This document shows, piece by piece, positions 7,167-32,558 of a stretch of DNA of 33,941 nucleotides. This DNA comes from Dehalococcoidales bacterium (lineage in GTDB: Bacteria; Chloroflexota; Dehalococcoidia; Dehalococcoidales; UBA2162). Location: positions 1-33,941 of the forward strand of contig JAUSGV010000066.1 in the NCBI GenBank assembly GCA_030648675.1, given 5' to 3'. The notes under the pieces are model-generated. The model worked only from the letters and a program-made list of their open reading frames with translations. It was not told the origin of the DNA and did no database searches. Numbering within the stretch: the first letter of the stretch is position 1; the number at the start of each line of letters is the position of its first letter. The position numbers and the translations under genes are program-made.

Positions 7167-7236
7167 ATATTTGTAATTAAAGCCTCCACCGTAGCCGTTA
7201 CTTCGGCATCCACATTTATCGCTCCGTGATTGCCTG

Positions 7237-8169
7237 CTACACCGATGACCCACTATGGAATTTATCACACTTGTCATTGTACGAGACGCTCCCCGAAATC
7301 ACCTTGTTGGAGACGCTCCCAAGTTGGAAAGTGAATTCTGCGCCTAGAATCATGATGAATGCCGAATAGTATATCCAGACAAGCAGGATGATAATAGAGG
7401 AGATAGAACCGTAGATAAGTTGGTAATTAGCGAAATTCTCAAGGTAGAAAATGAATAGAGTCCTGGCGAGTTCGAAGAGCACAGCCGAGAGGAGAGCTCC
7501 GGGCCAAATACGTCGCCAATACGTTTTAGTATTCGGAATGGTTTTGTAAAGCAACAAAAAAACTAACAATATCAGCAGGAATGCTACGAGCCTGCTAGCA
7601 ATGTCAATCGTTATCAGCATTGCAGCAGGCAAGTCGACTGAGCCGCGCAAAATTTCTACGATAACACTTGCTCCCAGGGAAAGAATGAACATTATGCCCG
7701 TACTTGCGGCCATCGCCAATTCGCTGGCTTTCCGAATAAGGAAATTTCGGTAGCGGCATATACCCCAGGCACGATTAATTACCAGACTTATCGCGCTAAA
7801 CATCGTACTCCCACTCCAGAAAAGGACAACTACACTCAATATCCCCAGGATACCCCGTAGTCTGACAATATTCGCGACATTTTGCCTCAAAATATCGGCA
7901 GCGCCGGGTAAATTATTGCTAAAAAATTCCAGCAATTCGTCTTTCAGATTCGTTGAGGGCAGGAAAAAACCAAAAATAGCAACGAGTCCCAGCAACAGCG
8001 GGAATATGGATAAAATTGCATAAAAAGAAACTCCCGCAGCCATATGTCCAGCATCGTGTTTGGCGGCCCCTTCTGTAGTGCGGGATATAAGTTGTATCAA
8101 AGGCATCTCAAGCAGGCGGGCCTTAGCGGTCTGTAACCTGGCGTTCAGGCTCTGTATCTTATTAAACAT
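7237..8169 (-). CDS. YihY/BrkB family inner-membrane protein
   Basis: 310 aa and polytopic. The GVSFYAILSIFPLLLGLVAIFG block and overall layout are typical of the YihY/virulence-factor BrkB family. Confidence 0.8.
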   Translation of the reverse strand: MFNKIQSLNARLQTAKARLLEMPLIQLISRTTEGAAKHDAGHMAAGVSFYAILSIFPLLLGLVAIFGFFLPSTNLKDELLEFFSNNLPGAADILRQNVANIVRLRGILGILSVVVLFWSGSTMFSAISLVINRAWGICRYRNFLIRKASELAMAASTGIMFILSLGASVIVEILRGSVDLPAAMLITIDIASRLVAFLLILLVFLLLYKTIPNTKTYWRRIWPGALLSAVLFELARTLFIFYLENFANYQLIYGSISSIIILLVWIYYSAFIMILGAEFTFQLGSVSNKVISGSVSYNDKCDKFHSGSSV

Positions 8170-8305
8170 CCCGGTGGCTCATTTTCATTTAGTGAATACC
8201 ACCCCATCAAGTCCGGTCATAAAAAACCACGCGTGCCCCGGATGCCGGGGAATTGTATGCCAAATCGAGTAATGACCAGGGCTTGAAGCCAATCAAACAT
8301 ACTAT

Positions 8306-9415
8306 CTATGGAAGCGCTTTCCCATTATCAGTTGTGACTGTAGTCGAGTGATAAACACGCCGGAAATACTTCAAAAGCTCGATAACCGTGGCTACTAAAG
8401 GTGCGGCGACAATGAATCCAATCATACCGAATACATAGGCACCCATTAGACTAATTAGAAGGATAAAAACAGGATTCATTTTCCAAACACTACCCTGAAC
8501 TCGGGGAGCAAGCAGGTTGTTTTCTATCAACTGAACTACTGCCAAGCCCAGAATAATCCAGATAGCTTTCTCCGGACTGGTCGCCAGAGCAATTGCAACA
8601 CTGGCGGCAATACTTAGCCAGAAGCCCAGAGTCGGGATGTTTTCCATCAAAGCTGCCCACACCGCCAGAGCCGGGGCGAATTCAACCCTCAAAACGGACA
8701 GCAAAATGAAAACCAGAATGCCCACAAAAACGCTCAATATTAACTGTCCGCGGATATAGCGCCCAAGTACTTTTTCAAGAATGCCGGCCACATTCTTCGC
8801 ATGCACACTCATCCAGGAAGGCAACACGTCGAAAAACCCGTCACGGAGACTGTCCCAATCCTTCAATATGAAAAAAACTATGAGGGGCAGGGAGAGGAAC
8901 CCCAGAACCAGACCGGCTCCTGTTGCTATTATTGAAAAACCACGTCCCAGCCCGTTACGCAGAGCCTCGACCACGGTAACGCCACCATTAGTGATGGATT
9001 GGTCATACTGCTGCAGCATAGATGCCGGCACTTCAAGCCGTACCGTTGCCATCAATTTCTGAATCCACGCTATAATATTGGAAATCATCTGAGGCACGTT
9101 CTGCCACAGAAGCGAGGCAGAACTACTGACAACCGTAAACATGTAAAATGCCGAGGCGGCTATTATGATAAGCCCGATGAAATAGACGCCGATAATTATG
9201 GATATGCGTTTGAGTCCCGGATGTTTTTTACCCCCGGGCAAATGCTTTTCCAGCCAGCGCACGATGGGCAATAATAAATAGGCGATAATAAGGCCGATCA
9301 GAAAAGGGGCCACGATAATAATGAATTTCCAGATAAGCCAGACTAACAGCAGCAGGCTGATTATAAACGTTATAAGCTGCCAGTGCTTTCTGAATAGAGA
9401 ATTAAACGAGTTCAC
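8306..9415 (-). CDS. AI-2E family transporter (PerM/UPF0118)
   Basis: 369 aa with about 8 TM segments and an AI-2E family-like layout. The GTG start at 9415 is only 3 nt after the stop of the upstream REC/HD-GYP gene. Confidence 0.8.
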   Translation of the reverse strand: MNSFNSLFRKHWQLITFIISLLLLVWLIWKFIIIVAPFLIGLIIAYLLLPIVRWLEKHLPGGKKHPGLKRISIIIGVYFIGLIIIAASAFYMFTVVSSSASLLWQNVPQMISNIIAWIQKLMATVRLEVPASMLQQYDQSITNGGVTVVEALRNGLGRGFSIIATGAGLVLGFLSLPLIVFFILKDWDSLRDGFFDVLPSWMSVHAKNVAGILEKVLGRYIRGQLILSVFVGILVFILLSVLRVEFAPALAVWAALMENIPTLGFWLSIAASVAIALATSPEKAIWIILGLAVVQLIENNLLAPRVQGSVWKMNPVFILLISLMGAYVFGMIGFIVAAPLVATVIELLKYFRRVYHSTTVTTDNGKALP

Positions 9416-9418
9416 AAC

Positions 9419-10585
9419 CTAATCTCCGCTGTAGTTACCCCAATATCTGGGCATCCGCAATCCTTGAAGGTTTTGTTGGCTCAGTAAAGCTTTCAATTCA
9501 GGAATATCAAAAGCCGGTTGATTATCGTCTGCGTATTGCTTCTTGATAGCAAGTATCTCATCCTGGATGGCAAAGAAAGCGTCTACGACATCCGGATCAA
9601 AGTGGCTCCCCCTGCCATCTTTGATGATGGCCAACGACTTATCTATAGAAAATGGCTCCTTATCTGGTCGCTTGGAAGTTAGGGCATCAAATACATCTGC
9701 GATTGCCGTGATGCGGCCGGCGTTTGGTATCTCTTTACCTTTTAGCCCACCTGGATAGCCGCTGCCATCCCATTTCTCATGATGAGACTGGGCTATAACC
9801 TCTCCCAGCTTAATAAATTCGGCGTCTGAACCCTTAAGTATTCTGGCACCAATGACCGTATGCAACTTCATGATTTCCCACTCCACCGGATCGAACTTGG
9901 CCGGTTTAACCAGTATATGGTCGGGTATACCCATCTTGCCTACATCATGCATAGGCGCTGCATAAAGAAGGGTCTTGATAGTATTCTCGTCCAGTCCTAT
10001 GCGGCGGGCGACCGCAGCAGAATAACGACTCATTCGCTTGATATGTGCGCCTGTGTCCTCGTCCTTGTACTCAGAGTCCATAGACAGCCGGTAAATCGTG
10101 TCCAGCGAAGCTGTTTTTATCCCCTCAACGGCTTGCCTTAATTCCTCTGTCCTCCTGGTTACCTCGGACTCCAGCTCTGTCCGGTAATTACTCATCAAGT
10201 CGTTGTAGGCTTTGACCTTCAGCAGAGACTGTACCCTGGCTAAAAGCTCCGTCTTGTCAACGGGCTTTGAAAGGAAATCGTCACAACCGGCTTCAATACC
10301 TTTTACCCGGTCTTCCGTTTCTCGCAATGCTGTAACTAAAATCATGGGGAGCAATCGATGTATATTATCCTGCCGAACCCTACGGGCTACTTCAAAACCG
10401 TCCATGCCCGGCATCATGACGTCCAGCAAAATCAGATCGATTTGATTATCAGAGAGTTTCCCAAGAGCCTCTTCACCGCTTGCCGCCTTGACAATTTTAT
10501 AACCCTGCGGAGCAAGATAGGCTTCGAGAAGTTCAACGTTTTGGGTCTGGTCATCGACAACTAAAATTACCGGTTTGTCCTTCAC
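9419..10585 (-). CDS. Response regulator with HD-GYP output domain (RpfG-like, probable c-di-GMP phosphodiesterase)
   Basis: 388 aa. The N-terminal receiver has VVDD..., LDVMMPGMDG and SKP. The C-terminal domain has HDVGK and HHEKWDGSGYP (HD-GYP signature). Confidence 0.9.
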   Translation of the reverse strand: MKDKPVILVVDDQTQNVELLEAYLAPQGYKIVKAASGEEALGKLSDNQIDLILLDVMMPGMDGFEVARRVRQDNIHRLLPMILVTALRETEDRVKGIEAGCDDFLSKPVDKTELLARVQSLLKVKAYNDLMSNYRTELESEVTRRTEELRQAVEGIKTASLDTIYRLSMDSEYKDEDTGAHIKRMSRYSAAVARRIGLDENTIKTLLYAAPMHDVGKMGIPDHILVKPAKFDPVEWEIMKLHTVIGARILKGSDAEFIKLGEVIAQSHHEKWDGSGYPGGLKGKEIPNAGRITAIADVFDALTSKRPDKEPFSIDKSLAIIKDGRGSHFDPDVVDAFFAIQDEILAIKKQYADDNQPAFDIPELKALLSQQNLQGLRMPRYWGNYSGD

Positions 10586-10625
10586 ATCTTCTCTTTTAAA
10601 TTCGACCTTTCAACACATTAGGAAC

Positions 10626-11008
10626 TCACTTAATGAATTGACTAATTTCCTTGGCGAAGGTACGCGTATTTATCGGTTTACCTATAAAATCCGCTGTTGG
10701 GCATGCTTTTTATGGCATCTATGCCCTCTGCCATTACTGAGACCCAAGTCGAAAGCAGAAGTAACGTTCCTCAAGACGGGCATTCATCGAAGAACGGCCT
10801 TCGGCTGGTTCTCCTGTCCTTATGTCATGCTGCTCTATATTTGGGGTGGGGGGGGTGACTCTTTAGATTCAACATCTTTCTGTATATCCATACGTTCTGA
10901 CATTACAAATGCAGGCTCCGTATTTACAAAACCTGCACTCCCTATCTGTATTTGTTTCTGGAAAGCTATTCTAAACTGAGGAAACGGAGTATATCCTCCA
11001 CCAAGCAA
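10626..11008 (-). pseudogene. Decayed receiver (REC) domain remnant, split over three frames
   Basis: Minus-strand fragments are: 11008-10835 ...AFVMSERMDIQKDVESKESPPPPQI* (MDIQ acceptor-box-like); 10783-10682 MPVLRNVTSAFDL... (PV..VT.AF, beta4-like); and 10694-10626 ADFIGKPINTRTFAKEISQFIK* (the D.F..KPI..R.. receiver C-terminus). No intact ORF of 60 aa or more exists. A C8 run (G8 on the + strand, 10848-10855) sits at one frame break. Confidence 0.35.
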
Positions 11009-11010
11009 AT

Positions 11011-11244
11011 TTAATGTAGAGGAATTTTCTCCTTTTCCTTGGACTCATATTTGATTTCAATAGTTGTTTCCTTGCCCGCCGCAAAATTCAACTCGATTTC
11101 TGAGTCTTCATCAACTTCCAAGAGTTTTTTTGCCATTTCCTTAGCACTCTTTAGCGGGAGCGGAATGGTGATGGTATTATTGATCTTCAGCCAGTCCGGG
11201 ATAGCTTTCAGATGAGCGATAATTTTTAATACTTTTTTCGGCAA
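11011..11244 (-). CDS. Hypothetical small protein (77 aa), AT-rich, TTG start
   Basis: The only support is an ORF with charged, Lys/Glu-rich composition. The RBS is weak and I recognise no motif. Confidence 0.35.
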   Translation of the reverse strand: MPKKVLKIIAHLKAIPDWLKINNTITIPLPLKSAKEMAKKLLEVDEDSEIELNFAAGKETTIEIKYESKEKEKIPLH

Positions 11245-11289
11245 CTATTACTTCTGATTTTCCTATTTCTTAATCGCAAGCAAAATCTT

Positions 11290-11535
11290 CTAATTCTTTA
11301 TTGCGTGCAATGCTGCCTGGCCCTTACGGCTCGCCTCGGAGCCGGCGTCCTTAACCAGGTCTATAGCTCCTTCAGTTTTACCTTTGAGAGCATCCACCAC
11401 TTCACCGGTCTTGTCTTTAATTGCCTGTCTGGTCTCTTTACCCGACTTTGGTGCAAAGAGCAAAGCAAGAACTGCTCCAATAGCAACGCCAGTGACCAAT
11501 CCGATACCAAAACCGATAGCATTATCTTTATTCAT
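11290..11535 (-). CDS. YtxH domain protein (general-stress-type, N-terminal TM helix)
   Basis: The start is moved to ATG 11535 (MNKDNAIGFGIGLVTGVAIGAVLALLFAPKSGKETRQ...), which is preceded by AGGAGGA. LFAPKSGKETR is the YtxH hallmark. Confidence 0.8.
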   Translation of the reverse strand: MNKDNAIGFGIGLVTGVAIGAVLALLFAPKSGKETRQAIKDKTGEVVDALKGKTEGAIDLVKDAGSEASRKGQAALHAIKN

Positions 11536-11821
11536 TATTGTTTCCTCCTGCATTACTTTCTTTTTTGAACATTTGGCCGAAACCCTCGAATCCCCCACAA
11601 ATACCCTGAATCAGCGTCACTAACGAAATCACCGGCTTAATACCATCTCGTACCATGGTAGCGGTATCATGGGCAATTTTAGACGTCGCTTTAACCAACA
11701 AGATTGTGGACATTATCGTACGATACAGACGGTAGATTAGTATTGCGGCAAAAATGAGCAATGCCGTTGTCACAAATCCCAGGATGGTGATACTCAAATC
11801 ACGGAACCATTCGATACCCAC
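11528..11821 (-). CDS. DUF948-like membrane protein, translationally coupled to the YtxH gene
   Basis: GTG start at 11821 has GGAGG 6 nt upstream. The protein is a single N-terminal TM helix followed by a helical region. It overlaps the YtxH start by 8 nt. DUF948/YtxH pairing is known from Firmicutes ytx operons. The family call is tentative. Confidence 0.55.
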   Translation of the reverse strand: MGIEWFRDLSITILGFVTTALLIFAAILIYRLYRTIMSTILLVKATSKIAHDTATMVRDGIKPVISLVTLIQGICGGFEGFGQMFKKESNAGGNNNE

Positions 11822-12143
11822 TGGTTACCTCCTTCATTCGGTAGTGGGATGAGGGTGATTGGTGAGCCAGTCATTCAACCGGCTCACCAGGATATTGCTA
11901 AACCGACTTGTCTTCTATCACACATGGTTTCGCCAAACAATTTGAGTATGTGCTCTGAATCACGAAGCCACAACCCTCTTGCCGTGAAGCGGACAGATGC
12001 GTAAGTGCCAATAAACTAATCTAATGGATGGTAACTAAATAGCACTTGACAAACGTAGAGGTGGGGGGATACAGTGGTTCTCACAACAGGCACTAAAGTA
12101 GTAGACGATAGTAAGCTAAAGTGTACTAAAACGGCATTTCACA

Positions 12144-12869
12144 ATGGGGAATAAAGAAACAAAAACCGGCACTCTTGGGGTCCTGATGATTGGGTTCAAT
12201 CCAGTTGTCAAAGAAGGACTACAAGCGATTCTGGCCAAAGACGAGAGAATTGAAATAATCGGAGATGTGCCTAATGAGCTTGATGCCCTCGAGCGTATCA
12301 AACAGGCTCATAAACGAGGCCAACAAGTCCGTGTGGTATTGACTGAGACTCGGAACAGTAAAGTGGATAGCGTGCAAATTACCAAGGTTATCAAGGACAA
12401 ATTCCCGGAGGTAGCCGTGCTGGTTCTTACGGAAAACCTCAACGATTCTTATATAATTGACGCCATCCAGTCCGGTGCAGCGGGATACATATTTCTTAAG
12501 GACATGTCACCGGAATTATTACTGCAAAGTATCTATCGTGCGGTTGAAGGCGGTTCCCAGATAAGTACAACGGTACTGCGTTCTGCCGTTGAAAATTTAA
12601 TTCAAAATGGACGAAAGACTCTTTCGGAACGTACGGCGGAAGCGGCTCATCTTACTGAAAGAGAAGTTGACGTACTCAGGCTCATGGGCAATGGAGACTC
12701 GAACAAGATAATTGCCGAGGCTTTGGGTATCACCCTGGATACTACTAAAAAACATGTGCGAAATGTCATCGATAAACTACAGGCACGCAGCCGTACTCAT
12801 GCGGCTATTATCGCCGCTCAAGCCGGCATTGTAGGTAGCCCTATCAAGAGGGATATCATCGAAAACTGA
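12144..12869 (+). CDS. LuxR/NarL-family transcription regulator with a degenerate (Asp-less) receiver domain
   Basis: The C-terminal GerE/LuxR HTH reads LTEREVDVLRLMGNGDSNKIIAEALGITLDTTKKHVRNVIDKL. In the N-terminal receiver fold, the DD pair is GF (VLMIGFNP) and the acceptor Asp is Glu (VVLTETR). The T (VLVLTEN) and K (FLKD) positions are kept. Confidence 0.85.
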   Translation: MGNKETKTGTLGVLMIGFNPVVKEGLQAILAKDERIEIIGDVPNELDALERIKQAHKRGQQVRVVLTETRNSKVDSVQITKVIKDKFPEVAVLVLTENLNDSYIIDAIQSGAAGYIFLKDMSPELLLQSIYRAVEGGSQISTTVLRSAVENLIQNGRKTLSERTAEAAHLTEREVDVLRLMGNGDSNKIIAEALGITLDTTKKHVRNVIDKLQARSRTHAAIIAAQAGIVGSPIKRDIIEN

Positions 12870-13159
12870 CCGAGTGTGGTAGGCTGGGTGTTTCTCTTAC
12901 TGATTACATTCAACACATCCTAAAAATCAATTGGGCGAACCAACAAGTACTACCTTAGACACCACAAACAATCAAGCGATTCGTCCATCGAATAAAACCT
13001 TCACTATCGTCATTAGATTCGAACCAATCCAATCTACAACAAGCGGATTTTAATCCGATTCCCTTTTTGTTGCACAAAATTTCAGTTATGTTACGATAAT
13101 TATTAGAGGGTCGGATTGACCCGACGGAACGCACGGCTAAAAGCCGAAAGGATCGAAAT

Positions 13160-21077: not shown

Positions 21078-22079
21078 TTGGCAAAAATATATTACGACAA
21101 AGACTGTAATCTGAAGTTGCTCGACGGGAAAACGATCGCCGTCGTCGGCTACGGCAGCCAGGGCACCGCCCACTCCAATAACCTGAAAGACAGCGGCTGC
21201 AATGTGATCGTCGCGGTTCCGAAGGGTGGTAACGGTTGGATCAGAGCCAAGAAGGACGGTTTCAACGTCATGACCGTCGCCGATGCCGCTAAAGCCGCGG
21301 ACATCATTATCATGCTGGCTCCCGACCACGTACAAAAGCAGATTTACTACGAATCCGTGGAAAAAAGCCTGACCAGGGGCAAAACACTGATGTTCGCCCA
21401 CGGCTTCAATATTCACTACGGCCAGATCAAACCGCCGGAGAATATCGACGTTTCCATGATCGCCCCCAAATCCCCCGGCCCCATGGTTAGACAGCAGTAC
21501 ACCGAGGGCAAAGGTACGCCGGCCATTATCGCCGTCCACCAGAATGCCTCCGGTAAGGCGAAGGCCAACGCCCTGGCTTATGCCAAAGGCATCGGCTGCA
21601 GCCGGGCCGGCGTCATTGAAACCACCTTCGAGGAAGAGACCGAAACCGACCTCTTCGGCGAGCAGACCGTCCTCTGCGGCGGTGTCTCCGCCCTCATTAA
21701 AGCCGGTTTTGAAACACTGGTCGAAGCCGGTTATCAGCCTGAGATCGCCTACTTCGAGGTCCTGCACGAGCTGAAACTTATCGTCGACCTGATCAACCGT
21801 GGCGGGCTTACGCTGATGCGCGACTCCGTATCCGATACGGCCAAGTACGGCGATTTCACCCGCGGCCCCAGGGTAATCGATGATTCGGTTAAAGCCGAAA
21901 TGGAATGTATCCTTTCGGAGATCCAGGATGGCACTTTCGCCAAAGAATGGATACTCGAAAACCAGGCCGGACGTCCGGTCTTCAACGCCCTCAAGCGGAT
22001 GGAATCAGAGCACGAGATTGAGGAAGTGGGCGTGGAATTGCGGAAAATGATGTCCTGGTTGAATCAACCGAAAAAGTGA
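21078..22079 (+). CDS. ilvC: Ketol-acid reductoisomerase (class I)
   Basis: 333 aa ([10 protein letters not shown]...GYGSQG Rossmann motif). TTG start with a strong SD. Confidence 0.96.
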
Positions 22080-23279: not shown

Positions 23280-23717
23280 TTACTTTGCGGTGCCTCCGGT
23301 TACGTACACGCCGAACACACCCATCTGGTCGTTAAAGACAACGGTACAATTATAGGAGGTATTGCCCGCCTGGATCGCCGCCAGGTCGTTGAGGGTACAG
23401 GCTTGTCCGCCGAGGGTCAGCGTCGTATTGGGTGAAATCGAGTAGGACTGCGTCCCGCCGGCAGTTTGAACGTTAATCGAGGAGTTTCCCCCGGCACTAG
23501 CCACCTTTACCCCGGCGAAAACGCCTGTGACGTTTTGATTCGCCGTAGGGGTTTTCGGTACTGTCGTCGGCTGATTGGTTTGAAGGTTGCAGCCCGCAAA
23601 AACCAGCATAACCAGCAGTATACCTGCTATACCAAAGAATTTCCTTTTCACAGCTTGGTCCGCCTTATCTTCCGGTGACCCAATTACTATGATAGTCCAA
23701 AAATCACGCGAAATCAT
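23280..23717 (-). CDS. Putative lipoprotein, Gly/Thr/Asn-rich beta-type domain with two Cys
   Basis: Signal peptide and lipobox: KRKFFGIAGILLVMLVFAG-C. The start is uncertain: ATG 23717 has no SD, and GTG 23651 would give a conventional 20-aa lipoprotein signal. I recognise no catalytic motif. Confidence 0.6.
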   Translation of the reverse strand: MISRDFWTIIVIGSPEDKADQAVKRKFFGIAGILLVMLVFAGCNLQTNQPTTVPKTPTANQNVTGVFAGVKVASAGGNSSINVQTAGGTQSYSISPNTTLTLGGQACTLNDLAAIQAGNTSYNCTVVFNDQMGVFGVYVTGGTAK

Positions 23718-23729
23718 AACAAATATGTA

Positions 23730-24539
23730 TCATTTTATTATCGGTTGGACACCCGCCGGGGTTTTGTCCTGGCTCTGAGCTTTTGGCTCCTTGCGTTTGA
23801 AAGTCTCCGCGAACCACAGGGGGTAATGCTGTCTCGCATAGGATTCGGACACTTTGCCGTCGAGCATAGAGCTTAACGATTCATCGGTTCTGGGATGCAG
23901 CATGCTCATGTACAGGTGCACGGTAAACATGACAGAGACAACTACAAAAGCCAGCGCGTGCGTGAACGAAGCCCAAAGATACAAACTGGTTTCACCCCGC
24001 CCCTTGAAAAACCATAAAAAGAGACCTGTGGGCAAAAGCACTGCCGCGGTAATAACGACAATCAATTGCCACAATTTCTGCCCGCCGTTGATGCGCCTTT
24101 GCGGCGGCATTTCGTCGCTGGTACCGAAATAATAGCTCAATGCTGATTTCACCCACGCTATATCGTCTTTCCCCCAACGGAATGTCTCCTTAATAAAATC
24201 AGCGGTGAGCCTGGGATTGGAAATCAAAAAGATCGTTGGCACTATGGCAAAAAATATCCCTGCAATAATATGGACCGCTCTTATGTCGTTTTTTCCGTTG
24301 GCATCGAGCAGATTAAAAAATAAAAGGGCCCCGGTTACGGTTAGAAAAACAAAGGCTATCGTATGGAGCCAGTGAGTTAAAATAGCCGCCTTCCCGAACC
24401 GCACCACTGTCCTTTTCTCGGTTCCCGCTGCCAATCTGGTTCTTCTGTTCACGATGGCGAAGTTAACCGAAATGCAGATAAAGCTGATTGCGAGTAGGGC
24501 GATTTCCAGCCATCTAAGGCCGGTAAACAAACGGTCCAT
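23730..24539 (-). CDS. Di-heme cytochrome b, FdnI / Ni-Fe-hydrogenase b-type subunit family (Ni_hydr_CYTB-like)
   Basis: 269 aa with 4-5 TM helices. Candidate heme-ligand His residues are in ILTHWLHTIAF, AVHIIAG, FTHALAF and VHLYMSMLHP. The family-typical INGGQK loop is present. Confidence 0.75.
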   Translation of the reverse strand: MDRLFTGLRWLEIALLAISFICISVNFAIVNRRTRLAAGTEKRTVVRFGKAAILTHWLHTIAFVFLTVTGALLFFNLLDANGKNDIRAVHIIAGIFFAIVPTIFLISNPRLTADFIKETFRWGKDDIAWVKSALSYYFGTSDEMPPQRRINGGQKLWQLIVVITAAVLLPTGLFLWFFKGRGETSLYLWASFTHALAFVVVSVMFTVHLYMSMLHPRTDESLSSMLDGKVSESYARQHYPLWFAETFKRKEPKAQSQDKTPAGVQPIIK

Positions 24540-24551
24540 AATCTTCTCATC

Positions 24552-24989
24552 CTAATCTAAAGGCAGCTTTACCTTGCTTAGCCAGAAATCTAGTAAAGAA
24601 CGTACGACGTCTGTCAGGGTGCCCAGATCCAAAGGTTTCACCAGATAACAATTGGCACAAAGATCGTAACAGGTCGAAACGTCCACGGGGGAACTCGACC
24701 CTGTCAACACAATCACCGGTATCCTCTTGAATTTAGGCGAAGATTTTAATTCAGCCAGCAATTCACGCCCATCGTAACGCGGCAAATTTAAATCAAGTAT
24801 GATAATTGCCGGCCTCGGAGAACCTTGTGATTCCATTTGATGGTTTAGAAAATCTGTGGCTTCGATGCCGTCCCGGGCCACATGAACGACTACATCCGGC
24901 CGGAATTCTTTTATTATGTCGGTTATGAGTACGACATCTCCCGGATTGTCTTCGACAAGCAGGACGTCTACATTCGGTTCATCCGGCAT
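24552..24989 (-). CDS. Single-domain (CheY/Rcp1-like) response regulator
   Basis: 145 aa with LLVEDNPGD, acceptor IILDLNLP, LTGS and VKP. GGGAGG lies upstream. It overlaps the 3' end of the upstream kinase gene by 11 nt. Confidence 0.9.
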   Translation of the reverse strand: MPDEPNVDVLLVEDNPGDVVLITDIIKEFRPDVVVHVARDGIEATDFLNHQMESQGSPRPAIIILDLNLPRYDGRELLAELKSSPKFKRIPVIVLTGSSSPVDVSTCYDLCANCYLVKPLDLGTLTDVVRSLLDFWLSKVKLPLD

Positions 24990-26445
24990 TCCTTGTGCCT
25001 CCCGGATTTACCGGCAGGGTGAAAGTAAATGTCGACCCCTTGTCCGGTTGCGAATCCACATAAACTTGCCCACCGTGACTTTCGATTATTTTTTTTACAA
25101 TTGCCAGACCGGTCCCGGTTCCCGGGTACTTGCCTCTCGCTTGTAGCTGTTGGAATAAAACGAATAAACGGGAAGAGAATTTCGGATCGATACCGATCCC
25201 GTTGTCCTTTACGGAAAAGGCCCATTCGTGCTTTTCTTCATCCTTCCAGGCCGAAACGTGTATTTGCGGAGTTTGTTCACCATGGAATTTGATTGCGTTA
25301 TCGATCAGGTGCTGTAATGCCCGTGCGATAAGCGTTCCATCGGCACGGATTACCGGGAGCGGATCGTGCGTTACAATCGCCCCGGTTTCCTTTACCTCGT
25401 TTTTAAGCCGCTCCATAATTTCACGGAACACGGTTTCCATATTCACGTCTTCGAATTGCCCATCGTGGCCGGCACGTGAATACGCTAAAAGGTCGTCTAT
25501 CAGTCTTTCCATCCGGGCAGCATTACTTACGATATACCCTATGTATTCATCAGCATCGGCCCCCAGTTTATCTTTGTAATGTTTTTCTAACATCTGGGAA
25601 AAGCTCGTTACCATGCGCAGCGGCTCCTTCAAATCATGTGACGCCGCATTGGCATACATCCTCAATTGCCTTTCGGCTTCAGCCAATTTCCTGTGGGCCG
25701 CTTCAAGTTCTGCCTTCGAGGCGATGACGTTTTTTAGATTTTCCGTCATCCGGTTGAAAGCCCGTGACAGGTCGGCGAACTCGTCATTTCCGGAAACAGG
25801 AATTACGTAGTCCAGATTACCTGAACCTACGATCTGGGGCCCAACAATCACTTTTGCAAGAGAACCTAATATCCGGCGGTTTATCAGTAACGCGTTGATA
25901 TATATCCCTATCCCGAAGATCAGGAATAAACCTAGCATCATTAAATTGTTAGTTTGCCTTAGTCTGTCGGATTTTTCATGTATTAAAAAATGAAGTCGAA
26001 TAATGTCCGTAACCATAGCCTGACTTTGTGCCTGCATCCGGCTCCACAACGTGCGAACGTACGCCAGATCGTTTAATGCAGACGGATTGGCATCAACATA
26101 GGATTGTATGTCGGAAAGTACTGCCAGAAATCTTTTCTGGTTCGCATTAGCTTCATCAACCAGACTTTGTTCTAACGCAGATTCCGCTTTAAAACGAGAA
26201 AGGTTGTCGGAAACGGCGTTTGTCTTTAACCTTAATAATTCGAGTTGGGAAGGGTATTGGAAAAGCAAATAGGCATTGGTGAGATAGGCGATCTCCTGGG
26301 CGTTTTGCTGAATACTCTCCGTCATACGCAGGTCAGTCTGGACTCTTTGTGCCCGGTTGTTCCAAAAAATTACTACACACACCGCTATCAGGACCATGAT
26401 AGCCCCAATAGAGGTACTTATATAAAACCGCGTCCTTACTCGCAC
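24979..26445 (-). CDS. Membrane sensor histidine kinase (TM - helical periplasmic domain - TM - HAMP - HisKA - HATPase_c)
   Basis: 488 aa with a GTG start 9 nt after the stop of the binding-protein gene. The HAMP domain reads DEFADLSRAFNRMTENL. The H-box is ASHDLKEPLRM. N, G1 and G2 boxes are present (DNAIKF, DNGIGI, GTGLAI). Confidence 0.9.
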   Translation of the reverse strand: MRVRTRFYISTSIGAIMVLIAVCVVIFWNNRAQRVQTDLRMTESIQQNAQEIAYLTNAYLLFQYPSQLELLRLKTNAVSDNLSRFKAESALEQSLVDEANANQKRFLAVLSDIQSYVDANPSALNDLAYVRTLWSRMQAQSQAMVTDIIRLHFLIHEKSDRLRQTNNLMMLGLFLIFGIGIYINALLINRRILGSLAKVIVGPQIVGSGNLDYVIPVSGNDEFADLSRAFNRMTENLKNVIASKAELEAAHRKLAEAERQLRMYANAASHDLKEPLRMVTSFSQMLEKHYKDKLGADADEYIGYIVSNAARMERLIDDLLAYSRAGHDGQFEDVNMETVFREIMERLKNEVKETGAIVTHDPLPVIRADGTLIARALQHLIDNAIKFHGEQTPQIHVSAWKDEEKHEWAFSVKDNGIGIDPKFSSRLFVLFQQLQARGKYPGTGTGLAIVKKIIESHGGQVYVDSQPDKGSTFTFTLPVNPGGTRNAG

Positions 26446-26454
26446 ATCCGGTAC

Positions 26455-27462
26455 CTAACGAATGATGGTCACTGCCGACCGATTCACGGCCCTAAGCGCG
26501 TCAAGGTAAAAGAAAGCCGCGAAATCAGGAATTTTGTTTGGAGACACCAAACCGGCTTCACTCATCCATTTCGCTTCATCGTTCATTATCGCGACCACGG
26601 CGAGGTCCAATGACAACATAAAACGGGTTAACGGCCATTCGGTTTCGATATATCCGGAATCGAGGTTTTGCTGCTTTGCTATTATCGTTTTCGCGTCTGT
26701 CGGCTGATTTAAAATAAACTGTTCGGCTGCATCTATTGCTCTGAGGTACTTTTCTACTAATTCTTCATAGGCAGTTATCCGATCCGCGCGTGCTACGGCT
26801 AGTCTGTAGCTTGTTTGATTACCCTGTGCCGGCCAGGTCAGAATGTCGGATTGCGGTTCAAGCTGATTTACGTAAATTCTCGAAAAAACTACTGCACTTA
26901 ACTCGCCGGCGTTGTAGTAATTAATCAATTGTGTCTGCGTGCCGTTAACAACAGTTATGTCCCTTAAACTAAGCCCGTTACGCTCCAAAAGGCGGCTCAA
27001 ATAGAATAAATTAACCGTGTCCGTGTTTACGCCAACCCTTTGGCCCTTTAAGGCAACAACCCCATCAATTCCGCTGCTTTTTCGAGCGGCCAATAATACC
27101 CCTTCGTATTTACTGTCGCTCGCAATTACTCTTACCGGTTGATTATCCAGGATGTTCCTGACCATTATGAATTCGGTCACGTAAGCGATATCCAAATTTC
27201 CTTCTGCCAGGGCGGCGGAAGCCTGAGTTCCCGTTTCGAAGCGTGTGAAAGTTACATTCAGGCCGTTGGCAGCAAAATATCCCTGGGCGTCAGCTATCAC
27301 TGCCGGACCGGCGGTAAGGTCTTTGAGGATGCCGACTCGTATAGATTCAACGGTTACCGGTTGGCCGTTTTGAGAACATGCCGTCCCTCCGGACGCTGCA
27401 AATAGTAGTGCCGCCGCGGCAACGGCTATTGTTTGAGTAATTTTGTAAACGTAACACCTCAT
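26455..27462 (-). CDS. Periplasmic substrate-binding lipoprotein, NMT1/SsuA/TauA-like (NitT/TauT family), no permease or ATPase partner
   Basis: 335 aa. The signal peptide has a lipobox-like AASGGTA-C. The type-2 PBP sequence pattern (IRVGIL...GNLDIAYV...ALKGQRVGV) matches the family. Its ATG overlaps the upstream kinase stop (ATGA). Confidence 0.75.
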   Translation of the reverse strand: MRCYVYKITQTIAVAAAALLFAASGGTACSQNGQPVTVESIRVGILKDLTAGPAVIADAQGYFAANGLNVTFTRFETGTQASAALAEGNLDIAYVTEFIMVRNILDNQPVRVIASDSKYEGVLLAARKSSGIDGVVALKGQRVGVNTDTVNLFYLSRLLERNGLSLRDITVVNGTQTQLINYYNAGELSAVVFSRIYVNQLEPQSDILTWPAQGNQTSYRLAVARADRITAYEELVEKYLRAIDAAEQFILNQPTDAKTIIAKQQNLDSGYIETEWPLTRFMLSLDLAVVAIMNDEAKWMSEAGLVSPNKIPDFAAFFYLDALRAVNRSAVTIIR

Positions 27463-29543
27463 GACAAAACTTGCTCCTGGCTCCCTGTTTCCTTTTCGGT
27501 ATTATTGATAGCAACGGTAAAATAGAAAGTCGATCCTTTGCCTGGCTCCGACTCTACCCAGACGCGTCCTCCGTGCCTTTGCACTACGCGTTTGGTTATA
27601 GCCAGGCCCATGCCTGAGCCGGGGTACTCCTCCTGGGGATTTAATCTGCTGAAAATCACAAACAAACGGCCAAACAACTCTTGAGATATGCCGATCCCAT
27701 TGTCTTTGACATAAAAAATCCATTCGCTGTCTTTTTTGTACGAAACACGTACCACCGGCTGCTCTCCCTGGCAGTGGAATTTGATGGCATTTGAAATTAA
27801 ATTTTGCAGAACCTGAGCCATCTGCGCCGGGTCCGCCTCGATCTCGGGCAGTTTGTCGTGAGTTATTGTTGCGCCGGTTTCTTCGATACTTACCTTAAGG
27901 TTTACTAAAACATCCTGAAACACCCTTTCCATGTCGACTTGCTGGAACGGTAATGTCTGTGTTGCCACCCTGGAAAATATCAGCAAATCGTCTAGCAGCC
28001 TCTGCATGCGCGCGGCTCCGTTGACGACGAATTCGACATACTCTCTTGCCCTTGCGTCCAGTTTGTCCTCCAGGTATTTTGCTAAAGACTGGCTGAAACT
28101 GGTCATCATTCGCAGCGGCTCGCGCAAGTCATGAGACGCCGCGTAAACGAACTGCTGTAGTTGGGCGTTAGCTTCCTCAAGTTTGACGGAATATTCCTTG
28201 AGCTTAACTTCCGCCTTCTTCCGTTCGGTGATGTCTACGCTTATTGAGATGGCGTAGGTTTTCCCGCCAATGGTAATCTGTTCGCTCGAGGAAAGCACGG
28301 ATATGAGTTTGCCCGTCTTGGTCCTTACGCTAAACTCACGGTTAATCATCTTGCCCGTCTCAAGAAAGTCCTGGATGCCTGCCGCCCGCTGCTCCGCATT
28401 TGGGAACATGCCCAGCTCGACGGAGGTATGGCCAACTATCTCTTCCCGGTTGTATTCCGTCAGCCTTAAGAAGCTATCGTTCACTTCGGTCCAGCGCCCG
28501 TCAGGGAGAGAAGCAATCGTCATCGCCAAGGGGCTGGATTGGAAAGTCTTGAAGAACCTTTCCTCGCTTTCCTTGAGTGCTTGCTCCGCTTTCTTGTGGG
28601 CTGTTATATCAACTAATATGCCCCGAACCCCCTGGACCTCGGCATTTTTGATTGCAAGACTGTGTACAAGTGCCGGGAATTGCGTCCCGTCCCGCCTTTT
28701 TATTAAGTACTCATTTGCACCGGCATCTTCGCCGCGAAGGACTCGCGCGAAACTGCTCCTGGCCGTAACGACGTAAGCTGGAGAAAAGATATCGAACAGA
28801 CTCAAACCCTTTTTGACTTCCTCTTCACTGGACCCCAATAAAGCCAGCATCCGGCGATTGGTATAAGTTAACGCACCGCTTGTATCAGTTTCATATATTC
28901 CTTCGGATAGAGCGTCGGCAAGTTCGCGAAATCTCTGTTCGCTTTCTTTCAAGGCTGTTTCAGCTTTTTTTTGCTCGGTCACGTCCATGATTGCCAGTCT
29001 GCATTGGCGTTGCCCGCCGACTTCCGGAGTCCACCCGATCCGCGCACTGACCGCAAAAACGCTGCCGCTGCTCTTATGCATCTGGTATTCACATGCGATC
29101 AACGCTTTCGACTTTTCAGCATTCTGTAAGCACAGATAAAAGGTATCCGTATAGGCCGGCAAAAGGTATCTGGTAAAGACATCGTTAAGCAGGTCCTGTC
29201 TGCTCAACCCCAGCATGGTACATCCGGTCAAGTTGACCTCAAGAATGCGATAATCGGGTGCCAGCGTAAAATAGCCGACTGGCGCGAAGTCAAATAACTC
29301 TCTATAATCGTCGCGCGATTTCTCCAGTTCCTTGCTGATCCGCTGTAACGACTCGTTCTGCGTGGCGAGCTGAATCTGGTGCACGTTTAATTCCTGGACT
29401 ACTTCTTCGATTTTTTCGGCCGGCATTTCAGAAACATCGAGCGGGATTTTCTCCGCTTGAGCTTCTGCCCGCTGGCGGGCGCTGATTTCCGTATCGTTTG
29501 ACGATTCTTTGAGTTTTGTTTTACTTCCGTTCGAATTTTTCAT
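27459..29543 (-). CDS. Cytoplasmic multi-PAS sensor histidine kinase (coiled coil + 3 PAS + HisKA + HATPase_c)
   Basis: 694 aa with no TM segment. There are three PAS-like repeats, each followed by (V/I)D(V/I)T(E/A)(Q/H/R)KKAE. The H-box is ASHDLREPLRM. The ATPase N/G boxes are SNAIKF, DNGIGI and GSGMGLAI. Confidence 0.9.
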   Translation of the reverse strand: MKNSNGSKTKLKESSNDTEISARQRAEAQAEKIPLDVSEMPAEKIEEVVQELNVHQIQLATQNESLQRISKELEKSRDDYRELFDFAPVGYFTLAPDYRILEVNLTGCTMLGLSRQDLLNDVFTRYLLPAYTDTFYLCLQNAEKSKALIACEYQMHKSSGSVFAVSARIGWTPEVGGQRQCRLAIMDVTEQKKAETALKESEQRFRELADALSEGIYETDTSGALTYTNRRMLALLGSSEEEVKKGLSLFDIFSPAYVVTARSSFARVLRGEDAGANEYLIKRRDGTQFPALVHSLAIKNAEVQGVRGILVDITAHKKAEQALKESEERFFKTFQSSPLAMTIASLPDGRWTEVNDSFLRLTEYNREEIVGHTSVELGMFPNAEQRAAGIQDFLETGKMINREFSVRTKTGKLISVLSSSEQITIGGKTYAISISVDITERKKAEVKLKEYSVKLEEANAQLQQFVYAASHDLREPLRMMTSFSQSLAKYLEDKLDARAREYVEFVVNGAARMQRLLDDLLIFSRVATQTLPFQQVDMERVFQDVLVNLKVSIEETGATITHDKLPEIEADPAQMAQVLQNLISNAIKFHCQGEQPVVRVSYKKDSEWIFYVKDNGIGISQELFGRLFVIFSRLNPQEEYPGSGMGLAITKRVVQRHGGRVWVESEPGKGSTFYFTVAINNTEKETGSQEQVLS

Positions 29544-29558
29544 GACCTTCCGCTCAAG

Positions 29559-30620
29559 CTAGGAATAAACGATCTTCTTGCCGAAGTAATCCAGGAGAAC
29601 GGCAAACACGAATTGAATAATGAGCAGGACCAGATACAAATAGGCGGCCGGGGAAGCCAGCACTATCTCCGGGCTGGTGAGCCTCCAGAGAAACAGGCCC
29701 AATATAGCGATAAACAAGAAAACGCTCAGGCTGAATTTATAATTGAATTTTCGCGATACCTGGTTTTCATAACTGACTGCCCACCCGATAAGTCCGGTGA
29801 AGATACTTACAGGTAAAGTAACCAACCCCAACAAAAGCAGGTACAGGGTTATCTGGTCGAAAATGCTTTTGCCAAGAAGTATCCATGCTGCGAAAGAAAA
29901 AGGGGCAACAACCGTGTAAGCAACCGTCAAATGGACCAGTGAAGTATGCGGCTTGAGGCTGTCGATCTTGCGGAATAGTTTGTGTTGAGCTGTCTCCTTT
30001 AAAGCAAGAAAACCGACGATAGGCAGCCGCGCCATCACCTCTTCGCCGTGCGGCGCCGGCAGAATTGCTTCAGTTAGGTCAATCCCGGCGCGGTGCTTTG
30101 CGCTGTGCAGGCCCTCTTTCCAACGTCTGCTGCCCGTCGCGTCAAACACCTGTCCTTTGAAGGCCACATAGGCTGCCCTGCCCTCTTTGCCGTCGGAACC
30201 GGCAAGTTCTTCAACGGAGAATGCGGTTTCCCTGCCCGCCCTCCTTGCTATCGCGTAGCGGATAGTCCTGACCAGCGTGTTGGCATCGATTTTTCCTTTA
30301 ACGAGGTAATCCTGCGCCCCCCGCCGGACCGTGCTGACGGCAAAAGTATCGTCATCGAGGCCGGTAAGGATAATAATTGGCAACACCGGAGCCACCGATT
30401 GAACGCGGGTAAAAGTCGTCGAACGCTGCGGGCTGTCTGGCAGGCCGAGGTCGAGTAATACGATGCTGTACCGGTTATCCGAAAGACTGTCGATGCCGCT
30501 TTTCAGAGTCTGTTTCCAGTCTACGGTAAAAGCCATGCCCGCGGCTTCGGCAAGCATATCCTCGATGAGGCGGGCATCTCCAGGGTTGTCCTCAATGAGA
30601 AGAACCCGTATATTTTCCAT
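29559..30620 (-). CDS. Response-regulator receiver fused to a cytochrome-b5-like (COG4892-type heme/steroid-binding) domain and a 4-TM DUF2231-like membrane domain
   Basis: The start is moved to ATG 30620 (MENIRVLLIEDNPGD), which has AGGAG 5 nt upstream. The track start at 30737 has no SD. REC motifs are EDNPGD, VLLDLGLPD, ILTG and VKGK. The middle region FSVEELAGSDGKEGRAAYVAFKGQVFDATGSRRWKEGLHSAKHRAGIDLTEAILPAPHGEEVMARLPIVG matches the COG4892 / cyt-b5-like pattern. The C-terminus has HTSLVHLTVAY plus four hydrophobic helices. Confidence 0.75.
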   Translation of the reverse strand: MENIRVLLIEDNPGDARLIEDMLAEAAGMAFTVDWKQTLKSGIDSLSDNRYSIVLLDLGLPDSPQRSTTFTRVQSVAPVLPIIILTGLDDDTFAVSTVRRGAQDYLVKGKIDANTLVRTIRYAIARRAGRETAFSVEELAGSDGKEGRAAYVAFKGQVFDATGSRRWKEGLHSAKHRAGIDLTEAILPAPHGEEVMARLPIVGFLALKETAQHKLFRKIDSLKPHTSLVHLTVAYTVVAPFSFAAWILLGKSIFDQITLYLLLLGLVTLPVSIFTGLIGWAVSYENQVSRKFNYKFSLSVFLFIAILGLFLWRLTSPEIVLASPAAYLYLVLLIIQFVFAVLLDYFGKKIVYS

Positions 30621-30943
30621 GCTGCTCCTGGACGGACTCACCTGTGCCGCGAAAAAACCATCGGAGAGCAGGTGCTGCCAAGATAATTCTAGACCTATTC
30701 CCGTTGCAGAGTCATAAAATCTGAATTCATAGACCATAAAGATTTTGTAACATTTTCATTTCTGTCCGTTGTTGTCTATAGTTGACTAATTCGCTTCGCG
30801 GGCTGATCCGAAAAATCAGGACCAATTACTTCTGCTGGAATTCAAGCCCCATTTCGCTATATACTATAGAAACTATGAACACCATCCATATTCTGTTGCG
30901 TGCCCACAATTTGGCCGGCAGAGACAAACTCATCCTTACCGTC

Positions 30944-31028: not shown

Positions 31029-32558
31029 TTGAAACCCGTTATGGATAAAGTAACCATATTCGATACTACCCTGCGGGACGGTGAACAAGCCGCAGGCGCC
31101 ACCCTGAATATCAAGGAAAAGCTGGACGTAGCCAAACAACTGGAACGGTTGAACGTCGACGTCATTGAAGCCGGGATGCCGATCAACTCCCAGGCTGAAT
31201 TCGAGGCCGTCAGCCTCATCGCCAAAGAAATCCGCATCCCGGTCATCTGTGCCCTGGCCCGCGCCATGCCGCAGGACATAGTACGAGCCGGGGAATCACT
31301 GAAGAATGCTGCCCATCCGCGGATCCACACGTTTATTTCTTCCTCGGATATCCACCTGGTTTACCAGTTGAAGAAAAGCCGCGACGAAGTTCTCGAGCAG
31401 GCTCGCAAAATGGTCAAACAGGCGAAAAAGTTCTGCGACGATGTCGAGTTTTCGCCGATGGATGCCAGCCGTACCGAACCGGAATACGTCTATCAGATCG
31501 TTGAGGCTGCCATCGACGCCGGCGCCACCACCATCAACATCCCCGATACCGTCGGTTACGCCATACCTGTCGAGTTCGGTAAATTAATCGCGGGCATCTT
31601 CAAAAACGTGCCCAACGTGAACAAAGCCGTTATCAGCGTACACTGCCACAACGACCTGGGGCTGGCCGTCGCCAACAGCCTGGAAGCCGTGAGAAACGGC
31701 GCCCGACAGGTAGAATGCACGATCAACGGACTGGGAGAAAGGGCCGGCAATGCCTCCCTGGAAGAGGTCGTGATGGCCATCAGGACGCGTAACTCCCTCT
31801 TTAACGTGACCACCAGAATCGATACGACGCAAATCTACCGCGCTTCGCGCCTGGTTAGCGAACTGACCGGTTTCCCCGTGCAGCCGAACAAGGCGATCGT
31901 CGGTTCCAATGCTTTCAGTCACGAGTCGGGAATACATCAGGACGGCGTCATCAAGATGCCGATTACATACGAAATAATGGATCCCAAGTCAGTCGGCATT
32001 CCCTCGAGCAGCCTCGTCATGGGCAAGCACAGCGGACGCCACGCCTTCAAAGAGAGGTTAGCCGAGCTGGGCTACAGCTTGAGCGATGAAGATTTCGCCC
32101 GTGCTTTCAACGCTTTCCAGCAGTTGGCGGAAAAGAAAAAAAGCATCGGTAACCGCGACATCGAATCGCTGGTCGCCGAACAGCAGCGTACCGTTTCGGA
32201 GATCTACCGTCTTGACCGCATCCAGGTGACCTGCGGCGACCGCGGCATGCCCACCGCTGCCGTCAGTTTGATCGGCCCCGACGGCAAAGCTGTGGCGGAT
32301 GCCGCCCTGGGTACCGGCCCGGTCGATGCTGTTTACAAAGCTATCAACCGGCTCATCAACGTGCCTAACAACTTGACCGAATTCTCTGTGAAATCTGTAA
32401 CCGAGGGTATCGATGCCATCGGCGAAGTGATGATCAGGATCGAGAGCGACTGCGTGACCTATACCGGGCGCGGCGCGGATACGGACATTATCGTGGCCAG
32501 TGCCAAGGCATACATGAACGCCTTGAACCGCCTCCTCACCACGAGAAAAGCATCCTGA
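31029..32558 (+). CDS. leuA: 2-isopropylmalate synthase (long form with C-terminal LeuA regulatory domain)
   Basis: [23 protein letters not shown] and [10 protein letters not shown] are present. The start is ambiguous: TTG 31029 is 2 nt after GGAAGGAG, and ATG 31041 is 14 nt after it. Confidence 0.95.

Follow-up and report, generated by a model that had tools for sequence, protein, structure and literature searches.

Introduction

To our knowledge, nearly all response regulators studied act through DNA-binding, enzymatic (GGDEF, methylesterase) or protein-binding outputs, with redox cofactors being normally placed on the kinase. ArcB and RegB, as well as the haem-PAS kinases FixL and DosS, illustrate how two-component signalling can be coupled to respiratory redox, and in all of them it is the kinase that carries the redox cofactor or sensor. 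In KaiA and CikA it is the receiver fold that is tied to membrane and quinone redox, these proteins lacking a phospho-acceptor and binding quinone directly. Finally, in PleD, WspR and DgcR the effector joined to the receiver is a GGDEF cyclase. The present work deals with a gene on the minus strand (29559..30620) of a 33,941-nucleotide stretch of DNA from a Dehalococcoidales bacterium (contig JAUSGV010000066.1 of assembly GCA_030648675.1), the whole of which is hereafter called the window. The predicted product of this gene joins an N-terminal receiver (REC) to a cytochrome b5-like haem domain and to a membrane domain of the DUF2231 family.

As judged from its sequence and structural models, this product is a genuine membrane-anchored response regulator that is predicted to bind haem b. 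PleD, WspR and DgcR provide the nearest receiver structures, and the co-encoded kinases and single-domain receiver recall the DivK-PleD logic, so that dimerisation driven by phosphorylation would be expected; in place of the GGDEF cyclase, however, the effector is a haem and membrane module, which implies no nucleotide second messenger. The likeness to KaiA and CikA is strengthened by relatives of the regulator being encoded beside KaiC-KaiB, whereas the complete phospho-acceptor site, the haem domain and the transmembrane helices set it apart from them. The coupling to respiratory redox proposed here is that of ArcB, RegB, FixL and DosS, but with the cofactor on the response regulator. By analogy, the regulator may be likened to the output of a PleD/DivK-type branched pathway equipped with a redox effector, or to the quinone-sensing pseudo-receivers of the clock, although it belongs to neither group.

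Gene and Reality of the Fusion

The regulator is encoded by a single intact gene of 353 amino acids (aa), with its stop codon at 29559..29561. The open reading frame (ORF) enclosing it on the minus strand spans 29559..30737, and the start codon was placed at 30620 (MENIRV...) because an AGGAG sequence lies 6 nt upstream and the N-termini of complete homologues (346-363 aa) fall at the aligned position or, in the 346-aa forms, seven residues downstream. A longer start at 30737 was considered and dropped, as no homologue carries such an N-terminal extension.

In a search of 5.8 billion proteins, the whole length of the regulator was covered by more than 100 clusters (90% identity), with lengths within that same range and identities of 39-76%. 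They originate from metagenome-assembled genomes of Dehalococcoidales, Chloroflexota, Acidobacteriota and Deltaproteobacteria, and from Candidatus Methanoperedens nitroreducens, and several of the full-length homologues bear all three COG names in the IMG annotation. These homologues bear directly on the possibility that two genes, one for a receiver and one for a cytochrome b5-DUF2231 protein, only appear as one owing to a sequencing error, a frameshift or a chimeric assembly. Genes of both kinds do exist separately and are sometimes neighbours, but more than 100 independent clusters, which stem from several phyla and many samples, show the fusion at a constant length and with the linker conserved, it is also present on the complete Methanoperedens chromosome, and the window gene contains no stop codon or change of frame. 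An artefact is accordingly a negligible prospect, and a frameshift or chimeric origin is excluded because the identical full-length architecture recurs in so many clusters. The reservation attached to the original prediction, that two genes might be concerned, is answered by this conserved ORF and its full-length homologues.

Conservation was evaluated in family alignments of 23 and 73 members, a residue being called conserved when invariant or at least 90% identical. In both alignments this level is reached by the catalytic residues of the receiver, by H172, H176 and H191 in the haem domain, and by H225, H230, G276, W280 and K295 in DUF2231.

The Receiver Domain

The receiver occupies residues 1-128 (30237..30620, minus strand). 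Pfam Response_reg (PF00072) matches residues 6-120 with an E-value of 2.6e-12 and 47.3 bits, above the cut-off of 30.2. Its active site is formed by the acidic pair E10/D11, the phospho-acceptor D57 (30450..30452, within VLLDLGLPD), T86 (ILTG) and K108 (VKGK), which are the residues that had originally led to the receiver being described as phosphorylatable; each of them is conserved across the 73 homologues. Y105 is also listed in the receiver beside the catalytic residues. In the AlphaFold2 (AF2) model five strands alternate with five helices, which corresponds to the (beta-alpha)5 fold, and Foldseek superposes the receiver on BeF3-bound receivers with a root-mean-square deviation (rmsd) of 1.6-2.0 Å. 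Structurally it comes closest to the receivers of a dual-sensor kinase, DgcR and WspR.

Pseudo-receivers of the KaiA/CikA type were considered as an alternative assignment and set aside, because the phospho-acceptor and the other catalytic residues are all present. The domain is a genuine receiver of the CheY-like family with a complete catalytic set, to which a kinase would transfer a phosphoryl group. Only five residues link it to the haem domain.

The Haem Domain

Residues 134-205 (30006..30221, minus strand) correspond to a cytb5M domain, that is, a MAPR-like prokaryotic cytochrome b5, as indicated by phmmer, Foldseek and ligand mapping. The Pfam family Cyt-b5 (PF00173), whose model was built mainly on classical cytochrome b5, matches the window protein below its cut-off (E 0.0033; 17.9 bits against 23.7), and most close homologues have a precomputed match to it. 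Comparison with the PDB by phmmer gave two strong matches, 6NZX (a "cytochrome b5 domain protein" of Hadesarchaea; E 1.2e-19) and 6VZ6 (E 6e-17), both gapless over 73 residues. The AlphaFold model of the full-length regulator (mean predicted local distance difference test, pLDDT, of 83.8) could likewise be superposed by Foldseek on 6NZX with a template-modelling score of 0.90, an rmsd of 0.9 Å and 53% identity, and on 6VZ6 with a score of 0.89, an rmsd of 0.9 Å and 46% identity.

In the 6NZX and 6VZ6 structures the haem is buried, with H42 and H61 as axial ligands, a hydrogen bond from S34 and a haem contact by H46 (bioRxiv 10.1101/2021.11.30.470528). Allowing for a one-residue offset in the numbering of the PDB chain, the gapless alignment places H172 (30105..30107) and H191 (30048..30050) of the regulator on H42 and H61 of 6NZX, and H176 and S164 on H46 and S34, which makes the former pair the predicted axial ligands and the latter the predicted haem contacts. 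Among 82 relatives (15 receiver-fused and 67 stand-alone proteins), H172, H176 and H191 are invariant and S164 is conserved at 93-99%. The middle domain is therefore very likely to contain a six-coordinate, bis-His haem b site.

The ligands and contacts are those of the solved cytb5M proteins from Hadesarchaea YNP_N21 (6NZX) and Methanococcoides burtonii (6VZ6), which are, however, soluble stand-alone proteins of about 78 aa, whereas in the regulator the domain is inserted between a receiver and a membrane domain. Classification as a eukaryote-type MAPR protein of the PGRMC1 kind was rejected: the tyrosinate ligation and the MIHIR insertion of that group are both missing from the bis-His domain, which aligns without gaps to 6NZX, a protein that likewise has neither of them. 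The cytochrome b5-like character first proposed from a COG4892 pattern is borne out by the two PDB matches, the domain being better named a bis-His cytb5M.

The Membrane Domain

The remainder of the protein, residues 206-353 (29562..30005, minus strand), consists of an amphipathic helix followed by the four-helix DUF2231 domain. The Pfam family DUF2231 (PF09990) is matched over 127 of its 139 profile positions (E 3.4e-7; 30.9 bits, cut-off 26.4). The AF2 models place helices at residues 224-249, 252-283, 290-315 and 325-349, and hydropathy analysis delimits the same four segments; when the domain was modelled alone, the amphipathic helix and four long helices were obtained with a pLDDT of 91.5 and a predicted template-modelling score (pTM) of 0.84. 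The original prediction, in which four C-terminal transmembrane helices opened with a DUF2231-like H....H motif (HTSLVHL), was in this way upheld by the profile, the models and the hydropathy plot together, and all of its architectural claims held, with significant matches obtained for both regions beyond the receiver and none of the findings that it had named as fatal being made.

H225 and H230, at the beginning of helix 1, are the two histidines of the HTSLVH motif and are invariant in the 82 relatives. The model and the topology put these and the other invariant residues (G276, W280, Y284, K295 and G347) at the cytoplasmic face of the membrane. Helix 2 bears W280 and Y284 at its end, helix 3 bears K295 at its start, and helix 4 bears G347 at its end. 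Lysine and arginine residues number five before helix 1, three in the loop between helices 2 and 3 and two at the C-terminus, with one in each of the other two loops. This distribution follows the positive-inside rule and fits an N-in/C-in topology, as a cytoplasmic receiver requires. Those of the invariant residues that are His, Trp, Tyr or Lys make up a putative site at the cytoplasmic face, adjoining the place where the haem domain must lie; a quinone, a metal, or a second haem held between two subunits of a dimer may be its ligand.

Distribution of the Fusion and Its Stand-Alone Relatives

The C-terminal 226 aa of the regulator were used in an exhaustive HMMER search of 1.84 billion cluster representatives, which yielded 1493 proteins at E <= 0.001, and the classes of architecture were counted among the best 150 of these 1493 matches (50%-identity clusters). 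A single cytb5M followed by DUF2231 (median length 236 aa) accounts for 78 of the 150 clusters, and tandem cytb5M repeats (two to six) without DUF2231 for another 55. Single cytb5M domains without DUF2231 are found in nine clusters and the combination of receiver, cytb5M and DUF2231 in four, the other four having either two cytb5M domains with DUF2231 or DUF2231 only. The stand-alone cytb5M-DUF2231 proteins, whose existence the original prediction had noted, are thus the common form, outnumbering the receiver-fused ones by about 20 to 1 in this set, and the receiver-bearing architecture, suspected at the time to be unusual, proved to be rare. No paper on DUF2231, COG4892 or a receiver-cytochrome b5 fusion was found in a literature search whose coverage left out the censuses of response regulators, and a search on transmembrane output domains and membrane-bound response regulators returned nothing relevant. 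The three-domain architecture is visible in automatic annotations, so that it has already been seen, and it is unstudied.

The stand-alone proteins (COG4892 plus PF09990) are homologous to the C-terminal 225 aa of the regulator, with 30-40% identity and identical invariant residues. They differ from it in having no receiver and in their neighbours, which are molybdoenzyme, iron-sulphur, NrfD and cytochrome c genes instead of kinases. Among 150 neighbouring ORFs from 27 loci, the most frequent families were cytochrome c (11 ORFs), Fer4_11 (4Fe-4S dicluster; 10), NrfD (nine) and molybdopterin oxidoreductase (six), which corresponds to quinone-coupled complexes of the Psr or alternative-complex-III type. 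In locus L155 (5062..10696), and also in L154, L135, L156 and L149, the stand-alone gene lies directly downstream of a Psr-like trio of molybdopterin oxidoreductase, 4Fe-4S and NrfD genes, which suggests that quinone-coupled molybdoenzymes use the module as an accessory or as one of their subunits. Other partners fused to cytb5M-DUF2231 include flavin reductase, pyruvate:ferredoxin oxidoreductase domains (twice), cytochrome c, rubrerythrin and a UbiA prenyltransferase. Because it is mostly found alone or fused to redox enzymes, cytb5M-DUF2231 behaves as an autonomous electron-transfer or redox module, the receiver being a rare addition.

In a rough neighbour-joining tree drawn without support values, 14 of the 15 fused sequences form one clade, and the Methanoperedens fused protein groups with stand-alone proteins; this hints at two fusion events or at one loss of the receiver. 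As a separate observation, the proteins with two to six tandem cytb5M domains and without DUF2231 (P0121-P0125 and others), of which P0121 has six repeats in 655 aa, could be soluble multi-haem-b wires.

Proposed Mode of Action

The reading that we prefer, and to which we would give somewhat less than an even chance, is that the regulator places membrane electron transfer under the control of phosphorylation. In this scheme one of the co-encoded histidine kinases would phosphorylate D57, with the single-domain receiver of the same operon serving as a second branch or as a phosphate sink. Once D57 is phosphorylated, the cytb5M-DUF2231 modules would be rearranged or paired differently, most probably by dimerisation of the receivers as in DgcR and WspR. 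As a result, electron transfer would be switched on or off between the haem/DUF2231 site at the cytoplasmic face and a membrane partner. This partner would be the quinone pool or else the FdnI-like di-haem cytochrome b of the operon, the latter being accompanied by two to four extracytoplasmic c-haems in most relatives. The two-component system would then act after translation, as a valve on a branch of respiration or electron export, and its output would not be transcription.

Several features speak for this reading. The three domains are supported by profiles, folds and conserved residues, the order of receiver and effector and the short linker between them match those of ordinary phosphorylation-activated regulators, the stand-alone module keeps company with respiratory genes, and the fused form lies among signalling and cytochrome genes. 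If the reading is true, this would be the first instance in which phosphorylation acts directly on a component of electron transfer; were control to run in the opposite direction, it would be the first redox-sensing receiver. The protein would also provide a functional handle on DUF2231 and on the widespread cytb5M proteins, for which structures are solved. The soluble REC-cytb5M half is expected to be easily expressed, making the central question directly testable.

Several points weigh against phosphorylation-controlled electron transfer. We know of no experiment on any member of the family. The family motif at the start of transmembrane helix 1 is H-x-H-x4-H, with H223 conserved at 93-96%, yet the window protein has K223 (29952..29954, minus strand) at this position, as do its two closest relatives (P0002 and P0003, both with Lys). 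The co-encoded cytochrome b cannot be an obligatory partner, since only 6 of the 16 loci compared below possess it. Bis-His six-coordinate haems also act as redox sensors, so that the anatomy of the protein fits control in the reverse direction too. The DUF2231 model has no significant structural relative in the PDB (Foldseek, best E 0.35), which leaves the quinone or second-haem site in this domain a conjecture. The top Foldseek matches, all at noise level, were CcmF, cytochrome bd, b561 and subunit III of bo3, together with unrelated four-helix bundles; a profile search of PDB sequences with DUF2231 gave no match at E up to 10, and hhalign compared the domain with the neighbouring FdnI-like cytochrome b at a probability of 0.3%. 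A kinship of DUF2231 with haem-b bundles, which had been considered, was not detectable by any of the three methods. Lastly, the full-length model has a pTM of 0.46, meaning that the geometry between domains is of low confidence.

The CcmF match raises another idea, namely that the module is not an electron carrier and that phosphorylation regulates the handling of haem or another cofactor, the module inserting haem or a prenylated cofactor into a neighbouring cytochrome b or c. CcmF is a haem lyase, the UbiA family to which one of the fusion partners belongs includes haem O synthase, and cytochrome genes lie next to the regulator. Nevertheless, the CcmF match is non-significant (E 0.35) and stands at the same noise level as unrelated bundles such as the FAT domain, the haem of 6NZX and 6VZ6 is buried and bis-His coordinated as in a stable electron carrier, and the fusions and neighbours are mostly redox enzymes rather than cytochrome-maturation genes. 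We regard such a role as improbable.

The low confidence of the inter-domain packing would suit yet another possibility, that DUF2231 and cytb5M only hold the receiver at the membrane or at the cytochrome complex, the receiver acting by protein-protein contacts in the manner of a single-domain receiver, as many receivers do by protein binding alone, and the haem having no regulatory or catalytic role. A haem domain would, however, be superfluous for tethering, and the haem ligands and the cytoplasmic-face residues of DUF2231 are kept as strictly in fused as in stand-alone proteins, which argues that the chemistry of the module has been retained in the fused ones. We consider a pure tether to be just as improbable as cofactor handling.

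The Operon in the Window

Seven genes on the minus strand (23280..30620), headed by that of the regulator, form a compact operon, a context that the original prediction did not mention. The regulator gene is followed after 15 nt by a gene (27459..29543) for a cytoplasmic histidine kinase with three PAS domains, HisKA and HATPase_c (Pfam) and without transmembrane segment. Next comes a gene (26455..27462) overlapping the stop of the PAS kinase gene by 4 nt, whose product is an SsuA/NMT1-like solute-binding protein with a lipoprotein-type N-terminus (NMT1, 1.8e-20; SsuA_fam of NCBIfam, 1e-31, below cut-off). A second histidine kinase, of membrane type and with HAMP, HisKA and HATPase_c domains (Pfam), is encoded at 24979..26445, and a single-domain receiver of 145 aa (Pfam Response_reg, 2.5e-17) at 24552..24989. 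The position of the solute-binding protein gene directly upstream of the HAMP kinase gene, both on the minus strand, points to a sensor that depends on a binding protein and would feed a second input into the operon.

The sixth gene (23730..24539) encodes an FdnI-like, di-haem membrane cytochrome b of the Ni_hydr_CYTB family (PF01292, 1.3e-22). Its H56, H90, H194 and H208 are invariant in six homologues, with H194 and H208 lying 14 residues apart on the last helix, a spacing that we take to be the FdnI pattern. The match to the formate dehydrogenase gamma model of NCBIfam (2.7e-26, 92.8 bits) does not reach the equivalog cut-off of 115.85. The window protein keeps an extra N-terminal transmembrane helix (GLRWLEIALLAISF...NRR) with no CXXCH, homologous to the C-terminal anchor of a 2- or 4-haem c-type cytochrome that is encoded upstream in L004, L086, L094 and L168 and is fused in L085. 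Judging from this homology, the c-haem domain was apparently lost from the window copy, leaving the N-terminal helix as a relic. Dehalococcoidia are monoderm and often devoid of cytochrome c maturation, which fits such a loss. The four-His di-haem pattern is shared with FdnI and CbcL-type cytochromes, and the relatives with a 2-4 haem c domain resemble a miniature CbcL; the window cytochrome b differs from these in its sub-equivalog score, in the lack of dehydrogenase catalytic subunits nearby and in having lost the haem-c part.

The last gene of the operon (23280..23717, minus strand) encodes, judging by its translation, a lipoprotein-like product of 145 aa that was not assigned to any family. 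It has no Pfam or NCBIfam match and contains neither His nor CXXCH, and its being part of the system is uncertain.

The operon lies on the strand opposite to co-directional ilvD, ilvB, ilvN, a tandem Usp gene and ilvC (21078..22079, plus strand) on one side and leuA (31029..32558, plus strand) on the other, and looks like an insertion into a branched-chain amino-acid cluster. Outside the operon, the window consists of ordinary chromosomal genes, namely groEL, these ilv, Usp and leuA genes and other regulators. Its GroEL shares 85% identity with that of Dehalococcoidales metagenome-assembled genomes, followed by matches from Chloroflexota. Two further response regulators of the window are a receiver-HD_5 protein (HD-GYP-like; 9419..10585, minus strand) and a receiver-GerE protein (LuxR-type; 12144..12869, plus strand). 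At the gathering threshold, Rfam recognised a single tRNA (257..338, minus strand); scans of the window for promoters and terminators gave promoter-like matches at chance level.

Related Loci and the Direction of Control

Neighbouring genes were counted in 16 receiver-fused loci with flanking sequence, collected by exact-protein look-ups and a metagenome scan, the window being included for the cytochrome b count. All 16 have a kinase or KaiC-KaiB as an adjacent neighbour, 12 have a single-domain receiver in such a position, and seven have KaiC and/or KaiB. Five of the six loci with an FdnI-like cytochrome b, one of the six being the window, also encode a 2- or 4-haem c protein. Two arrangements can be distinguished. 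In the first (L086, L085, L004, L094 and L168) the regulator is followed by KaiC-KaiB in some cases, and then by a PAS kinase, a single-domain receiver, a membrane-anchored 2- or 4-haem c cytochrome and the cytochrome b; the window is organised likewise, minus the kai genes, none of which it contains, and the c-haems. In L168 and L094 the PAS kinase occupies the equivalent place after the regulator. The second arrangement consists of kinase, single-domain receiver and regulator, in this order (L087, L106, L115, L169 and L170). L001 combines the regulator with the single-domain receiver and has no kinase; of the two Kai proteins it encodes KaiB only.

The kai genes lie directly beside the regulator in L086 (7114..8888), L085 (1227..3016), L090 (1808..3684), L091 (3269..4666), L093 (10581..10826) and L001 (9609..9932), and in several relatives KaiC-KaiB are followed by the PAS kinase and the single-domain receiver. 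Kai systems outside cyanobacteria may in this way be linked to a membrane haem protein, and with KaiC-KaiB flanking the gene in several relatives, the regulator offers a handle on the inputs and outputs of such KaiBC systems. In L087, a gene for a receiver-hemerythrin fusion (7085..7924) is found directly downstream of the regulator, the two receivers being close paralogues (E ~2e-40).

These neighbourhoods bear on a reading in which control runs the other way: the redox state of the cytb5M haem, set through DUF2231, the quinone pool or the cytochrome b, would tune the uptake, retention and loss of phosphate by the receiver. The protein would then be a redox-dependent phosphate sink or kinase modulator, passing the redox state of the membrane or of the extracytoplasmic side on to the network of histidine kinase, single-domain receiver and KaiBC. 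The single-domain receiver that adjoins the regulator in 12 of these 16 loci suggests competition for one kinase, and KaiC-KaiB is directly adjacent in six or seven loci; in the input of the cyanobacterial Kai system, receiver-like domains (the pseudo-receivers of KaiA and CikA) sense the redox state of quinone. The hemerythrin paralogue of L087 is another case of a receiver joined to a metal-cofactor sensing domain, and where the cluster is full, c-haems and two b-haems make up a chain across the membrane whose end lies at the face on which cytb5M sits. On the opposite side stand the fully preserved catalytic residues of the receiver and its usual place at the N-terminus, as in regulators that control an output, and the association of the stand-alone module with respiratory enzymes rather than signalling genes; besides, no transcription factor is consistently encoded downstream in the clusters. 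For these reasons we hold the reverse direction to be unlikely, though it deserves serious consideration next to phosphorylation-controlled electron transfer.

A further scheme, rather doubtful in our view, takes the regulator as the cytoplasmic end of a redox wire through the membrane, running from the extracytoplasmic c-haems through the two b-haems of the FdnI-like cytochrome and the DUF2231 site to the cytb5M haem. Receiving electrons as well as a phosphoryl group, it would work as a coincidence detector, or as a redox-gated phosphate sink, that reports the redox state of the membrane or of the extracellular space to the histidine kinase and KaiBC. Were this true, the protein would fulfil, in Kai systems outside cyanobacteria, a function analogous to the quinone sensing of the KaiA and CikA pseudo-receivers.

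A last observation concerns L085, where the regulator is followed by a complete hydrogenase maturation set (7066..13056; HycI, HypA, HypC, HypD, HypB-like, HypF and HypE) and a second Ni_hydr_CYTB gene is found upstream, which hints at a hydrogenase-linked electron path in this locus.

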